This document shows positions 25,901 to 43,111 of a stretch of 43,318 nucleotides of DNA, piece by piece. The first letter of the stretch is position 1. The number at the start of each line of letters is the position of its first letter. The position numbers were made by a program, and so were the translations under genes. The notes below the pieces were generated by a model. That model was given only the letters and a program-made list of their open reading frames with translations, searched no databases and was not told the DNA's origin. Source of the DNA: an uncultured Candidatus Saccharibacteria bacterium (GTDB lineage: Bacteria > Patescibacteriota > Saccharimonadia > CAILAD01 > JADZBC01); the NCBI GenBank assembly GCA_964600985.1, contig CAZRJR010000001.1:1-43318 (forward strand). The letters are read 5' to 3'.

Positions 25901-26326
25901 ATGAAGAACCAATGGCGATATAGTCATACCGAAACCACTAAGGCCGAACCTGCTGCTATTTGGCAACGCTGGACTAATGTGGCCGGCTGGCCGAAGGAAG
26001 ACCAGAATCTTGAGAAGGCTGAACTGGTTGGTGAGTTTAAAGTAGGTAATACGATCGCAATCAAGCCTAAGGGCTCACCAAAGTCCAGAGTAGTTATTAC
26101 TGAAGTTACGCCAAATCAATCATTTGCGACCCAGGGTAGCATTCCACTTGGTAAACTCATCGTTGCTCACAAGGTAGAGAAAGGTGGAGCGCAAACAAAC
26201 TTTACCCACACCATTACTGTGACGGGTCCATTACGCAAGTTGTTTGTGAAGATGGTGGTACAAAAGTTGGCTAATGATTTACCCCAGAAGATGCAAAACA
26301 TTGCTCGCCTAGCTGAAGAACTATGA
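25901..26326 (+). CDS. SRPBCC (START/polyketide-cyclase-like) family protein
   Basis: It encodes 141 aa. AEPAAIWQRWTNVAGWPKE is typical of SRPBCC N-termini. An extended -10 (TGGTATACT) ends 6 nt before the ATG. Confidence 0.6.
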   Translation: MKNQWRYSHTETTKAEPAAIWQRWTNVAGWPKEDQNLEKAELVGEFKVGNTIAIKPKGSPKSRVVITEVTPNQSFATQGSIPLGKLIVAHKVEKGGAQTNFTHTITVTGPLRKLFVKMVVQKLANDLPQKMQNIARLAEEL

Positions 26327-27207
26327 ATGGTGTAGTTCGGCATGAAGCGCCATTTAGTTTGCGTAATCAAAACAACTTCTTTGGCGGTTGGCCCGTGGTT
26401 ACAGACATCCCTCATACTTACGCTGTTGCAATTACTTTCCCTGTCGAGGGTTGGCAGAATTCGGCCGCCGTGGTGGTATCGGAACAGAATGGTACACTGA
26501 GTACCGAGGTGTATGGCACAAAGGAGTCAGAAAAAGCTATTTCTCAGACTCTAGCAACGTTATCACTCGACGTTAATGATAGTGGTTGGCAAGAGGTAGG
26601 TAAACGAGACACGGTAATCGCTAATTTGCAAAACAAGTATGGCTACTTACGGCCAATCTTGTTCCACTCGCCCTATGAGGCCGCGGCTGGATTCATTATT
26701 GGTCAGCGCATCTCTGTAAAGCAGCGCCAGGCCATACAGGCCAAAATGGCCGACCAATTGGGGCAAAAGATTATATTGAATGGTGCTGAATACGCTGCCT
26801 TCCCATCCCCGCAAGTACTCTTAGAGCTCAGCGAGTTTCAGGGTTTGAGCGAGGTTAAAGTTCGGCGACTCAAAGGCATTGCGCAAGCTGCTTTGGATGG
26901 CCGGCTAGATCGCAAAAAACTTTTGAGTATGTCGGTAAGCGATGCATTGGAGAGCTTACAATCGTACGATGGCATCGGTCCATTCTGCGCTAGTGGTATT
27001 CTCTACCGTGGTGCTGGGATAGTAGACAATATTACGGACGATGATCTTACCAAATACGCCGTCAAGCACGCTTATGGTTTAGATTTTAGACCGTCACAAA
27101 AGCAGGTTCTGGAGATTGCTGAATTGTGGAGGCCATACAGGATGTGGTGTGAGGTACTGCTACATGTGTGGATGCGCCGAGAGGTTGGTGTGCCAAAACG
27201 GCACTAA
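26323..27207 (+). CDS. HhH-GPD DNA glycosylase, AlkA-like
   Basis: The helix-hairpin-helix LQSYDGIGPFCASGILYRGAG is followed by acidic residues. The size and the N-terminal AlkA_N-like part fit. It overlaps the upstream stop with ATGA. Confidence 0.65.
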   Translation: MNGVVRHEAPFSLRNQNNFFGGWPVVTDIPHTYAVAITFPVEGWQNSAAVVVSEQNGTLSTEVYGTKESEKAISQTLATLSLDVNDSGWQEVGKRDTVIANLQNKYGYLRPILFHSPYEAAAGFIIGQRISVKQRQAIQAKMADQLGQKIILNGAEYAAFPSPQVLLELSEFQGLSEVKVRRLKGIAQAALDGRLDRKKLLSMSVSDALESLQSYDGIGPFCASGILYRGAGIVDNITDDDLTKYAVKHAYGLDFRPSQKQVLEIAELWRPYRMWCEVLLHVWMRREVGVPKRH

Positions 27208-38492: not shown

Positions 38493-39827
38493 ATGGAAGA
38501 ACAGGCCAAAAAGGTCCAGCAAGTTGTCGAGAAGGAGGTGATCAAAGAACTCACGCCCAGTCGCTGGGTTAAGTTTGTACGACACCTTGGGCCTGGACTC
38601 GTAACTGGTGCTGCCGATGACGACCCCTCGGGTATAGGCACATACACACAGGTGGGTTCCGCATTTGGCTACTCACTTGCTTGGATGATGCCTTTCATGC
38701 TACCAATGATGATCGCGGTCCAAGAAATGGCTGGCCGCATAGGATTGGTAACGGGTCGCGGCCTCGCGTCCGTTATGAAGGAGAACTACAGTCGCTGGTT
38801 CCTCTATGCCGCAGTGTTCTTTTTGGTGTTTGCCAACACGGTTAATATAGGTGCCGACATTGGTGCGATGGCGGCTTCGGCTCAACTACTTATTAATCTC
38901 CCGTTTGTGTGGTGGACACTATTCTTTACTCTTGCCATTGTGCTCTTAGAATTGATTGTTCCATACAGGCAGTATGCGAAAATTCTTAAATGGCTTTGTC
39001 TCTCCCTGTTTGCCTACGTAATTACAGCATTTATGGTAAATATGCCTTGGCGTGATGTATTGCATAAGACTCTTATTCCGCACTTCCAATTCGACCCTGC
39101 TTTTATCTTGGCAATCGTAGCTCTGCTCGGCACAACGATTTCTCCATACTTATTTTTTTGGGAGCCTAGTCATATAGTCGAGGAGCAAGTTGCGCATCGT
39201 TGGCGTAAAGAGGGTGACGGTGCACCACTCGTGACCGACCACCGCATCAAAGATTTTCGTAAAGACAATGCTGCTGGTATGCTGCTTTCGCAAATCGTCG
39301 CCTTCTTTATTCTGATTACGGCGGCGGCCACCTTGCACGCCGCAGGTATATTTAATGTGTCGTCGGCCTCCGAAGCCGCCAAGGCACTAGAGCCACTCGT
39401 AAAGGGATTTCCTAACGCCGGGTTTGTCGCCAAGTTATTATTTGCATTGGGGATTATTGGCACTGGCATGCTAGCCATCCCTATACTGGCTGGCTCGGCC
39501 GGGTATGCGGTTAGTGAAGCACTTGATCTGAAAGAGGGATTATTCCGCAAGGTTTCTAAAGCCAAGGGGTTCTATGCGGTAATTGCTGGCTCTACGCTTA
39601 CTGGGCTACTTATTAACTTCGCTGGCATCGATCCAATCAAGGCCCTCTACTACGCCGCCATTATTAATGGGGTCATGGCCGTACCACTCATATTCGTAAT
39701 CATCCGCATTGGTAACAACAAAAAGATTATGGGTGAGCGCAAGAACTCTAAGCTTTCTAATGCAGTTGGTATATTTACGCTGGTAGTTATGCTGGCCGCA
39801 ACGCTTGGCATGGTGTTTGTACATTAG
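38493..39827 (+). CDS. mntH: NRAMP-family divalent metal transporter
   Basis: GPGLVTGAADDDPSGIGTYTQVGSAFGY is present, with 11 or more TM segments. A TATAAT box (38481-38486) ends 6 nt before the ATG. Confidence 0.8.
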   Translation: MEEQAKKVQQVVEKEVIKELTPSRWVKFVRHLGPGLVTGAADDDPSGIGTYTQVGSAFGYSLAWMMPFMLPMMIAVQEMAGRIGLVTGRGLASVMKENYSRWFLYAAVFFLVFANTVNIGADIGAMAASAQLLINLPFVWWTLFFTLAIVLLELIVPYRQYAKILKWLCLSLFAYVITAFMVNMPWRDVLHKTLIPHFQFDPAFILAIVALLGTTISPYLFFWEPSHIVEEQVAHRWRKEGDGAPLVTDHRIKDFRKDNAAGMLLSQIVAFFILITAAATLHAAGIFNVSSASEAAKALEPLVKGFPNAGFVAKLLFALGIIGTGMLAIPILAGSAGYAVSEALDLKEGLFRKVSKAKGFYAVIAGSTLTGLLINFAGIDPIKALYYAAIINGVMAVPLIFVIIRIGNNKKIMGERKNSKLSNAVGIFTLVVMLAATLGMVFVH

Positions 39828-39860
39828 AAGCTAGCCTCGAGTCAGTAACTAGCCAAAGTT

Positions 39861-39889
39861 TTGCAATATACTTATGCTCGGATTATAAT
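39861..39889 (+). promoter_or_regulatory. Near-consensus promoter TTGCAA-N17-TATAAT
   Basis: The hexamers lie at 39861-39866 and 39884-39889. Confidence 0.6.
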
Positions 39890-39895
39890 CAAAGT

Positions 39896-39976
39896 ATGAT
39901 ACTAAGTCACAAGCTCACAACCTGGTCGTCATTTATTTCCTACTCACCAGTAAACGGATCGAGGAGCCAGGGTTAG
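39896..39976 (+). other. Leaderless 26-codon ORF (MILSHKLTTWSSFISYSPVNGSRSQG) or about 130-nt sRNA
   Basis: The ATG lies exactly 6 nt after the -10 box, as at nine annotated genes in this window. The unit ends at a strong terminator. Confidence 0.35.
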
Positions 39977-39998
39977 ATTAGTCCAAAAGTTATCTTCT

Positions 39999-40030
39999 AA
40001 AACTGCCTTCTCGGGCAGTTTTTTTGTTTT
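39999..40030 (+). terminator. Intrinsic terminator
   Basis: The hairpin AACTGCC-ttctcg-GGCAGTT is followed by a T-run (TTTTTTTGTTTT). Confidence 0.75.
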
Positions 40031-40083
40031 AGTTAATTTGTCCGAGAGTACCTACAAATCCAAATACGTTCTAGGAGGCAGTT

Positions 40084-40317
40084 GTGGTTGTGTTGCTCGA
40101 ATACTTCAATGCTCACCCGGTAGGCGTTTGCGAGCACAGGGTGCGTTTGTGCCCGGTGTGTGGCCGACCGTTCGAGGAGGGTCAGGTGAAGCTCGGTTAC
40201 TTCGATCGAGCTACCAGTGGCTACTACGAAGTCCACGACGGCTGTGAGGTCGGCTTGCCGAGCTTTATTGAGAACCAGGAGGTGGACTGTGACGGAGATC
40301 TTTCGTTCGCATGTTGA
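40084..40317 (+). CDS. Small Cys/His-rich protein (77 aa), putative zinc-binding
   Basis: An AGGAGG SD lies 5 nt before GTG 40084. CPVCGRPF and HDGC motifs are present. The gene is GC-rich relative to its flanks. Confidence 0.5.
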   Translation: MVVLLEYFNAHPVGVCEHRVRLCPVCGRPFEEGQVKLGYFDRATSGYYEVHDGCEVGLPSFIENQEVDCDGDLSFAC

Positions 40318-40921
40318 TTTTCAGGAGCTCCTTGGTGAAGTCGCACGTCGAGGCTTTGCGTTTGAGGCCGAAGGAGTTTGTCTGGATTTCTGTCGAGAAC
40401 TTGTCGAATCTGTCGACTCAGTTGAGCTGACGCGCTACTTCAGACAGACCGATAGCATCTGTGTGAAGACCGAGGCGTTGGTGTTGCGGACGGATCAGGA
40501 CATCATTCCTGTTCCAATCCGATTGCTGTACGAAAAGGTCACGCAGCGAGTGAGGATGTCGGCGCCGCGGTGCAAGCCGAGCCTCAAGCAATGGCTACCA
40601 AACGAGATTACCATACAGCGATTCAGTGAGCATGATGATCAAATATCGCGACATCAGGATTTTTCGCCTGATCGTGAGCTGATCATCATCTTTACCATCG
40701 AGGGCGCAGGGCCGTTTAGGATGTATGAGGCGAGGCACAGTGCTGAGCCCACGCACGCATTCGAGACGGCATCGGGCAGCATAGGCCTGCTCATTGCACC
40801 TGCACTAGATGGCGCAGATCATAGGGTCGACATTCGTCCAGTCCACTCTGCAGATCCAGCTCACGTGCTGCCCCGCACTACCATTACCTTTCGGATGGTA
40901 GTGGGGAGTAAGCCAGGGTGA
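40289..40921 (+). CDS. AlkB-like Fe(II)/2-oxoglutarate dioxygenase (210 aa)
   Basis: An AGGAGG SD lies 7 nt before GTG 40289. PNEITIQRFSEHDDQISRHQDF compares with E. coli AlkB PDACLINRYAPGAKLSLHQDK. A distal His lies in IRPVHSA, and RTTITFR compares with RYNLTFR. It overlaps the upstream ORF by 29 nt. Confidence 0.55.
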   Translation: MTEIFRSHVDFQELLGEVARRGFAFEAEGVCLDFCRELVESVDSVELTRYFRQTDSICVKTEALVLRTDQDIIPVPIRLLYEKVTQRVRMSAPRCKPSLKQWLPNEITIQRFSEHDDQISRHQDFSPDRELIIIFTIEGAGPFRMYEARHSAEPTHAFETASGSIGLLIAPALDGADHRVDIRPVHSADPAHVLPRTTITFRMVVGSKPG

Positions 40922-40942
40922 GCATGAACGTATCCGAACTAA

Positions 40943-40972
40943 GAACCCCCGTGGCATGTGCTGCGGGGGTTC
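40943..40972 (+). terminator. Stem-loop closing the GC-rich islet (no T-run)
   Basis: The hairpin is GAACCCCCG-N12-CGGGGGTTC, with a 9-bp stem. Confidence 0.35.
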
Positions 40973-42839: not shown

Positions 42840-42917
42840 TGGGGTGAGTGATGGGTCTCGAACCCACGACCTCTTGGACCACAACCAAGCGCTCTAACCA
42901 ACTGAGCTACACCCACC
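42840..42917 (-). tRNA. tRNA-His (anticodon GTG) with encoded G-1 and CCA
   Basis: The minus strand reads G-GTGGGTG-TA-GCTC-AGTTGGTTA-GAGC-G-CTTGG-TTGTGGT-CCAAG-AGGTC-GTGGG-TTCGAGA-CCCAT-CACTCAC-C-CCA. Confidence 0.92.
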
Positions 42918-43034: not shown

Positions 43035-43111
43035 TGGTGTCCCCGGTTGGATTTGAACCAACGACCTACAGCTTAGAAGGCTGTTGCTCTATCCAGCTGA
43101 GCTACGGGGAC
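43035..43111 (-). tRNA. tRNA-Arg (anticodon TCT), CCA encoded
   Basis: The minus strand reads GTCCCCG-TA-GCTC-AGCTGGATA-GAGC-A-ACAGC-CTTCTAA-GCTGT-AGGTC-GTTGG-TTCAAAT-CCAAC-CGGGGAC-A-CCA. Confidence 0.93.

Follow-up and report, generated by a model that had tools for sequence, protein, structure and literature searches.

Near the 3′ end of a 43,318-nucleotide stretch of DNA from an uncultured Candidatus Saccharibacteria bacterium (contig CAZRJR010000001.1 of assembly GCA_964600985.1, positions 1 to 43,318 of the forward strand; hereafter the window), two overlapping genes encode a 77-amino-acid (aa) protein with cysteine and histidine motifs and a 210-aa protein with the predicted fold of a 2-oxoglutarate (2OG)/Fe(II) dioxygenase. 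Upstream of the pair are a promoter-like site, a short open reading frame (ORF) and an intrinsic terminator, and a strong hairpin follows the second gene (Table 1). Members of the Saccharibacteria live as ultrasmall epibionts, their genomes measuring about 0.8 Mb, and to our knowledge gene regulation in this group is almost unstudied. A sequence-only reading of the window had taken the two genes for a GC-rich, horizontally acquired islet composed of an AlkB-like enzyme and a zinc-ribbon-like partner. When related genomes were compared, the locus instead appears to be a ribosome-sensing leader-peptide attenuator that controls the pair, and the pair itself is, judged by its distribution, an old and conserved unit within one order of Candidatus Saccharibacteria and not recent foreign DNA.

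Table 1. Features of the locus, with positions counted from the first nucleotide of the window
Feature	Positions	Strand	Basis and remarks
Promoter-like site, TTGCAA-17 nt-TATAAT	39861..39889	+	10/12 hexamer matches
Leader-peptide ORF, 26 codons + TAG, MILSHKLTTWSSFISYSPVNGSRSQG	39896..39976	+	kept in 22/25 loci
Region 2, predicted anti-terminator 5′ arm	39961..39974	+	spans the end of the leader coding sequence and the first stop-codon base; pairs with 39999-40012
Intrinsic terminator: stem 39999-40022, loop UCUC, T-run	39999..40030	+	terminator scan and pairing in 22 sequences
Region 5 (CCGAGAG)	40042..40048	+	complementary to the terminator loop and first 3′-arm bases (40008-40014)
AGGAGG Shine-Dalgarno, small gene	40073..40078	+	5 nt ahead of GTG; read from the sequence
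Small gene, 77 aa, acidic CxxC...HxxC zinc-binding protein (treble-clef-like, predicted)	40084..40317	+	GTG start; ORF list
AGGAGG Shine-Dalgarno, dioxygenase gene, within the small gene	40277..40282	+	6 nt ahead of GTG; read from the sequence
2OG/Fe(II) dioxygenase gene, 210 aa, between AlkB and PHD subfamilies (predicted)	40289..40921	+	in-frame GTG at 40289
GC-rich hairpin at the operon end, without T-run	40943..40972	+	folding and genus comparison

The observations on which the sequence-only reading was built were confirmed. Both genes start with GTG behind AGGAGG Shine-Dalgarno (SD) sequences and overlap by 29 nt (40289–40317), the motifs CPVCGRPF, HDGC, IQRF, ISRHQDF and RTTITFR are all present in the translations, and a hairpin is found on either side of the pair. 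The ORF list gives the second gene as 40217–40921, and the 210-aa product begins at the internal in-frame GTG. Among 25 loci of the same order, the small ORF reached or overlapped the oxygenase start in 22, so the translationally coupled Cys/His partner is indeed kept next to the dioxygenase in other genomes. The gene arrangement shows the pairing and the translational coupling of the two genes. The hairpin after the oxygenase gene (−26.2 kcal/mol, z −4.5) was more stable than any of 200 shuffled sequences, and a comparable strong hairpin, in which a C run pairs with a G run, was found 3′ of the oxygenase gene in all five loci of the genus. The hairpin has no T-run and was not scored as a terminator in the terminator scan.

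Between the upstream Nramp gene and the pair, the nucleotide sequence was conserved, even in comparisons in which protein identity was 25–35%. The −10 hexamer of the promoter-like site ends 6 nt ahead of the leader ATG, and a −10-like hexamer (TATAAT, TATACT or TATTAT) had the same spacing in each of the five loci of the genus. If the predicted site is used, the transcript would therefore be leaderless or almost so. The leader ORF begins MILSHKLTTWSSF; of the three related loci in which it was missed, one lies at the start of a contig, one at the end of a contig and one has a broken gene. In the 22 loci that have it, codons 8–11 (Thr8, Thr9, Trp10 and Ser11) were invariant as amino acids and were written with 4, 3, 1 and 4 different codons, respectively. 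Position 12 was Ser in 21 of the 22, once via AGT, position 13 was Phe in 18, and positions 2–7 were semi-conserved. After residue 13 the length of the leader varied (19 to 29 aa), and the frame changed between members of one genus. Synonymous codon variation suggests that the ORF is translated, which would place a short coding sequence between promoter and terminator, as in an attenuator.

Two mutually exclusive RNA structures are predicted downstream of the leader core. The terminator was paired in 97.7% of cells across the 22 sequences and was the only helix that RNAalifold predicted on the aligned leader region. In the alternative structure, the anti-terminator, region 2 would pair with the 5′ arm of the terminator. 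Across the same sequences the anti-terminator was paired in 85.1% of cells, against 40–53% when the partner was slid, 17 cells had changed on both sides and none of 500 shuffles scored as high. For example, the pair 70–129 was AU in 12 sequences and GC in 10, and the pair 69–130 was AU in 15, CG in five and GU in two. Such a covarying anti-terminator, exclusive of the terminator, is what is expected of an attenuator. The leader stop codon also lies where a ribosome could affect the choice between the structures: in all 22 loci it falls between 3 nt ahead of region 2 and 12 nt beyond its end, being past the end in 16 and by 1–2 nt in 14 of those, and the Trp codon is 32–36 nt upstream of region 2. 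When the first 49 nt were masked, as by a ribosome on codons 8–13, the anti-terminator and no terminator was predicted in 21 of the 22 loci. When region 2 was masked, as by a ribosome at the stop codon, the terminator was predicted in all 22. A helix between regions 1 and 2 was also considered; it is predicted in this genus, in the minimum-energy fold of this locus.

The leader with its terminator was then searched for as a pattern in 61 related genomes. It was found in 23, in one copy each, and every one of these belongs to the 25 that encode the oxygenase; the 36 genomes that lack the enzyme had no match, a reversed control pattern gave no matches, and the present genome has a single copy. 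The comparison shows that the leader element is strictly linked to the oxygenase, together with covariation that supports the anti-terminator. The terminator ending at 40030, which the sequence-only reading had used as a boundary of the islet, is real, and it appears to be the expression platform of the operon's own leader-peptide attenuator and not a boundary. When 39600–40300 was searched against Rfam, only sub-threshold matches to the terminator hairpin were obtained, the best being Phe_leader (E 0.43, 21.8 bits, cut-off 55).

A further element, region 5, follows the terminator. It was paired with the terminator loop and 3′ arm in 92.8% of cells in the 22 loci, against 25–62% when slid, with nine cells changed on both sides and none of 500 shuffles as high, in an alignment that is imperfect in some rows at this region. 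Region 5 could act on the stability of the mRNA or on translation of the first gene. A conserved ACCT-containing stretch follows region 5, just before the SD sequence of the small gene.

The attenuator architecture and the conservation of amino-acid identity, not of codons, are also what a classical amino-acid attenuator would have. In that case the leader would respond to the supply of charged Thr, Trp and Ser tRNAs, and the enzyme would serve the metabolism or salvage of these amino acids, perhaps as a hydroxylase of one of them in free form. We consider this unlikely: the core contains just two Thr, one Trp and two Ser codons, the semi-conserved positions 2–7 suggest that the sequence of the peptide itself matters, no link was found between the enzyme and Thr, Trp or Ser, and structural neighbours of the enzyme that act on free amino acids score below those that act on proteins or nucleic acids. 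Because there is no run of a single amino acid and positions 2–7 are semi-conserved, an effect of the nascent peptide is at least as likely as the sensing of tRNA charging.

The 77-aa protein belongs to a family of divergent sequences (30 sequences, 22% mean column identity) in which C23, C26, H51 and C54, located in the CPVCGRPF and HDGC motifs, are the sole invariant residues and make up a pattern of zinc ligands, and in which R42, Y48 and L58 are at least 90% conserved. No family was matched above its cut-off, and the sole Pfam match, Rad50_zn_hook, was sub-threshold. The isoelectric point (pI) was below 7 in 28 of the 30 sequences and the core region was acidic in all 30; the protein of this genome has a pI of 4.5 and a net charge of −8. 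The suggestion of the sequence-only reading that the partner could be a nucleic-acid-binding subunit is weakened, because the family is acidic. In three oxygenase-bearing genomes (G034, G030 and G008) no zinc-protein match was found at E ≤1 with a profile that is possibly too weak for them. Prediction of a complex between the oxygenase and the zinc protein gave scores of 0.02 and 0.00, with a mark of 0.32, and is neutral as evidence. Longer forms of the zinc protein (161–193 aa) were seen in five lineages (loci L008, L009, L010, L011 and L017); they carry an N-terminal extension of about 90 aa with more Cys/His clusters (CPYDNT..CQNGHEW..RCEG..CxWCG) that matched no Pfam or NCBIfam family.

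A HMMER scan over 1.84 billion representatives gave 115 relatives of the oxygenase at E ≤0.001, most of them about 190–230 aa long. In an alignment of 61 relatives, the full HxD...H iron triad and an R(x5)R pattern were present: H122, D124, G139, H186 and R196 were invariant, and Y112, T136, G163, L168, R183 and R202 were at least 90% conserved. The AlphaFold model of the 210-aa protein (pLDDT 95.5, pTM 0.92) has the double-stranded β-helix of the 2OG/Fe(II) dioxygenase superfamily, with H122, D124 and H186 as the predicted iron triad and R196 as the basic residue for the 2OG C5 carboxylate. By its modelled fold and its cofactor-site residues, the assignment of the protein to the 2OG/Fe(II) dioxygenases is settled. 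In a search for fused forms, no protein of 369–2000 aa matched at E ≤0.001, which is weak evidence, and the N-terminal extensions of seven longer representatives contained no CxxC...HxxC. In the ESM Atlas, the oxygenase fell among clusters of 'hypothetical protein', commonest in Actinomycetota and Pseudomonadota, one of which had PF13532 on 11% of its members.

The sequence-only reading had called the enzyme AlkB-like. The dioxygenase fold and the HxD...H...RxxxxxR pattern stood up; as to the subfamily, sequence leans towards AlkB and the predicted structure leans slightly towards PHD-type prolyl hydroxylases. The 210-aa protein had no Pfam match at E ≤1, and so stayed below the gathering threshold of the AlkB family (PF13532), and no NCBIfam match. 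Among the 61 relatives, 28 matched PF13532 at E ≤0.1 (best E 2.6e-7; the one relative whose score was inspected had 26.7 bits, cut-off 31.2), nine matched PF03171 and none matched the prolyl 4-hydroxylase (P4H) family PF13640 at E ≤0.1. A sequence profile search of the PDB returned 27 matches, all at E ≥0.031, of which 24 were AlkB, ALKBH or N6-adenine demethylase (NMAD-type) chains. The RTTITFR sequence, with R196 and R202, agrees with the last-strand pattern R-x-(N/S)-x-T-x-R, which we take to be a defining feature of the AlkB family, R202 presumably being the AlkB-type residue. In Foldseek, ALKBH2 was ranked first (E 3.3e-10), and the best TM-scores (0.65/0.73) were those of the Pseudomonas putida prolyl hydroxylase PPHD. 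The structural comparison scores were highest for PPHD (17.4–18.1), followed by PasI (17.0), Trichoplax PHD (17.0) and PHD2 (16.3–17.7), and then by ALKBH6 (16.2), PolD (16.1), ALKBH3 (15.3), ALKBH7 (15.0), Escherichia coli AlkB (14.9) and ALKBH2 (14.2), so that PHD/P4H prolyl hydroxylases are the nearest structural neighbours of the model.

Of 61 genomes sampled from the order, 25, spread over nine of 25 genera, encode the oxygenase. In an even sample of the phylum it was present in 7 of 401 genomes, this genome included, and the other six had no small ORF. A scan of one genome per species, limited by a single peptide pattern that biases which homologues are recovered, gave 30 loci, four in Saccharibacteria and 26 in Actinomycetota, mostly Pseudonocardiaceae; an ORF with the CxxC...HxxC (CCHC) motif lay upstream of the oxygenase in three of the four Saccharibacteria loci and in none of the 26 in Actinomycetota. 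In a midpoint-rooted FastTree of 114 of 122 sequences (those of at least 150 aa), the pair-associated Saccharibacteria proteins grouped apart from the Actinomycetota clade, with 17 of the 23 eligible loci of the order included (L011, L019 and L021–L024 were dropped). In 21 of the 26 actinobacterial loci (within L036–L061) the oxygenase gene comes after one conserved gene of about 300 aa, one copy of which was tested and identified as a mycobacterial-type methylenetetrahydrofolate reductase (MTHFR; PF19345, E 1e-156). Three loci of 65% GC in the phylum sample (L027–L029) have the oxygenase after GTP cyclohydrolase I (FolE), and in locus L046 a homologue adjoins a gene of the uracil-DNA glycosylase (UDG) family, which was seen once.

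The GC content of the pair is raised, as had been claimed, and the difference is modest: 0.549 compared to 0.493 for the 774-kb genome, a value equalled or exceeded by 4.6% of 7713 genomic windows of 838 bp. GC at third codon positions (GC3) was 0.675 in the small gene and 0.576 in the large gene, and 3.5% and 11.2% of 490 ORFs of at least 200 aa were as high, respectively. Other 500-bp bins within the window reached 0.548 and 0.564. Across loci, the GC content of the pair ranged from 0.41 to 0.56 and tracked that of the host genome, and it was above the flanks in 20 of 22 loci, with a mean excess of 0.041. Because the pair follows its hosts and still exceeds its flanks nearly everywhere, the slight excess is a property of these genes at any locus and no sign of recent arrival.

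A recently acquired foreign cassette, encoding an AlkB-type DNA or RNA demethylase and a nucleic-acid-binding zinc-ribbon subunit, would agree with the raised GC and the high GC3 of the small gene, with a unit that has a promoter and an end hairpin of its own, with the lean of the sequence profiles towards AlkB demethylases and the conserved R(x5)R, with the one-carbon and DNA-repair genes next to distant homologues, and with the finding that this genome has no further PF13532 match at E ≤0.01 (the same search was positive in E. coli, Caulobacter and Corynebacterium). Against it stand the spread of the oxygenase through the order, a leader kept at the nucleotide level, GC that follows the host, the separate grouping of the Saccharibacteria proteins included in the tree from the Actinomycetota sampled, the slightly closer structural similarity to prolyl hydroxylases, and the acidity of both proteins (the enzyme has a pI of 5.8), which is unusual for nucleic-acid binders. 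Recent horizontal acquisition is not supported by these comparisons, nor is the horizontally acquired islet of the sequence-only reading, and we regard the cassette as a whole as quite unlikely.

On balance, we lean towards the reading that 39861–40972 is a self-contained, long-conserved operon that is induced by ribosome stalling and whose two products act on a translation-linked target. In order, it would comprise the promoter, the leaderless 26-codon leader, the anti-terminator/terminator switch, the gene for the CCHC protein, the overlapping dioxygenase gene and the end hairpin. A ribosome that reads the leader through to its stop codon would cover region 2, so that the terminator forms and the operon is off. 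A ribosome stalled at the Thr-Thr-Trp-Ser-Ser(-Phe) codons would leave region 2 exposed, so that it could engage the 5′ arm of the terminator, and transcription would read through into the pair. The acidic zinc-finger protein and the oxygenase would then jointly oxidise their target, by hydroxylation or by oxidative demethylation.

Several points weigh against the stall-induced operon. The leader has no run of codons for a single amino acid of the kind that defines classical attenuators: its core is T-T-W-S-S, mostly followed by F, and no amino acid in the core is repeated more than twice. The structure was derived from the same, related sequences on which it was evaluated and the position of the mask was chosen by us, so the shuffle and folding tests overstate the support. 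In one locus (L024) no anti-terminator was predicted on masked folding. For 12 of the 22 loci, the anti-terminator is the predicted fold of the full-length RNA with no ribosome on it, and the operon of those lineages may by default be 'on' until a ribosome arrives at the stop codon. The helix between regions 1 and 2, which belongs to the textbook three-hairpin model, was rejected for the order as a whole, with 66% of cells paired and no excess above shuffles. The three oxygenase genomes with no detected partner suggest that the enzyme may work without the zinc protein, and distant homologues in Actinomycetota and other Patescibacteria have neither the partner nor the leader.

As to the target, a protein of the translation apparatus is tentatively our first choice, because the operon is tied to translation, both products are acidic and the best structural neighbour is the prolyl hydroxylase of EF-Tu. 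RNA or DNA bases, acted on in the manner of AlkB, are a possible but less probable target, which is supported by the sequence profile, the R(x5)R pattern and the one-carbon or repair genes found beside distant homologues (MTHFR_2, FolE and, in a single case, a gene of the UDG family). A small molecule is a somewhat unlikely target, and the leader peptide itself is the least likely of the four. Very unlikely, too, is a module resembling those for ribosomally synthesized and post-translationally modified peptides (RiPPs), in which the 26-aa peptide is the substrate of the oxygenase, the zinc protein recognises the peptide and the hairpin does no more than fix how much peptide is made per enzyme. 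In favour of such a module, codon changes in the leader are synonymous and preserve the amino acids, the ORF invariably lies just 5′ of the enzyme genes, clusters for peptide natural products commonly have a terminator between the precursor gene and the genes for its enzymes, and the small partner has no other known role. Against it, the covarying anti-terminator at the peptide stop codon in every locus points to ribosome-dependent switching that a stoichiometry hairpin would not need, the peptide after residue 13 is variable in length and frame, no Pfam or NCBIfam model, RiPP precursor models included, was matched, and the unit has no transporter or protease gene.

A more specific version of the stall-induced operon would make the HTTWSSF leader a nascent-chain sensor that stalls on a ribosome-directed compound or on damage met on the actinobacterial host. 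The pair would then provide inducible protection by oxidising a component of translation (a ribosomal protein, EF-Tu, tRNA or rRNA) or the compound. This is a long shot; if true, the leader-controlled erm, cat or tlrB systems would have a counterpart based on a 2OG oxygenase. An operon kept in nine of 25 sampled genera, with what appears to be a ribosome-sensing switch of its own, is probably not something these cells could easily do without. It offers a well-defined and tractable attenuator whose leader breaks the rule of the amino-acid run, an orphan CCHC zinc protein whose gene is linked to that of a 2OG oxygenase, and a distinct oxygenase clade whose wider uncharacterised relatives include 115 representative clusters (E ≤0.001) and named Actinomycetota loci. 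Should the target lie in the translation apparatus, an oxygen- and 2OG-dependent modification would be tied to translational stress in a minimal bacterium.

The neighbours of the operon differ inside one genus, since the gene upstream may be Nramp, OpgC-like or DUF4185. In this genome (37319–39827) the Nramp transporter gene sits between an OpgC-like acyltransferase gene and the operon; in locus L002 of the same genus, a 344-aa protein that is OpgC-like by eye is encoded directly upstream of the operon, and three other loci of the genus have a DUF4185 gene there. In two genomes of one genus (L006:887–1549, minus strand, and L007), the 3′ end of the oxygenase gene is overlapped by a gene of the same orientation for a 221-aa MTS-type S-adenosylmethionine methyltransferase (PF05175 E 2.6e-14; PrmA 1.2e-8), a possible third gene of the operon in that genus. 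Two loci (L016:2833–3240, minus strand, and L015, oriented 491–934) encode, between the leader/terminator and the zinc-protein gene, a 136–147-aa protein with a coiled-coil-like C-terminus that matched no family above its cut-off. Elsewhere in the window, the AlkA-like glycosylase that had been proposed at 26323–27207 retained a sub-threshold HhH-GPD match only (E 3.6e-4, 21.3 bits, cut-off 26.2), and genes for tRNA-His (GTG) and tRNA-Arg (TCT) lie on the minus strand at 42840–42916 and 43035–43111, just downstream of a PMT_2-type glycosyltransferase gene.

Compared to known systems, the oxygenase shares with the AlkB family (PF13532; E. coli AlkB and human ALKBH2, ALKBH3, ALKBH6 and ALKBH7) the HxD...H triad, two Arg six residues apart on the last strand, which HMMER aligns to RVSLTIR of ALKBH6 and RVNLTFR of ALKBH2, an (N/Q)-R-(Y/F) motif ten residues before HxD and a similar size of about 200 aa. 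It differs from that family in that its relatives reach the Pfam profile only below threshold and it does not reach it at all at E ≤1, in being acidic, and in having an obligate-looking CCHC partner gene and a putative leader-peptide attenuator, neither of which is a known feature of alkB loci; a literature search, at the level of listings, found no link of either to alkB loci. With PHD-type prolyl 4-hydroxylases (P. putida PPHD, which acts on EF-Tu, human PHD2 and the Trichoplax and Dictyostelium PHDs) it has in common the order of N-terminal helices and strands before the β-helix and an Arg ten residues after the distal His, which we take to be the PHD spacing; it differs in sequence (10–15% identity, and no PF13640 match in any of the 61 relatives) and in its second conserved Arg, R202. 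Judged by sequence and model, the oxygenase belongs to a known superfamily and represents in it a new clade, as yet without a name, that falls between AlkB demethylases and PHD prolyl hydroxylases. For the 77-aa protein, structural neighbours were found only among treble-clef zinc fingers (C1 domains, RING and the zinc fingers of PARP-1), which like it have a CxxC knuckle, a β-hairpin and a His/Cys at the start of a helix. The combination of a leader attenuator, an orphan CCHC protein and an AlkB/PHD-like oxygenase was not found described in the literature listings searched. Leader-peptide attenuators as such (trpL, thrL and pheL, and the sensors tnaC, ermCL and the cat leaders) share with this locus a short 5′ ORF, a terminator, an exclusive anti-terminator and a stop codon so placed that a terminating ribosome masks the anti-terminator. 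In contrast, this leader has the invariant core TTWSS and no run of one amino acid, the genes behind it are neither biosynthetic nor known resistance genes, no Rfam family was matched above threshold, and an additional covarying region 5 lies downstream of the terminator. Judged from these comparisons, the regulatory device is of a known kind, with an atypical leader.

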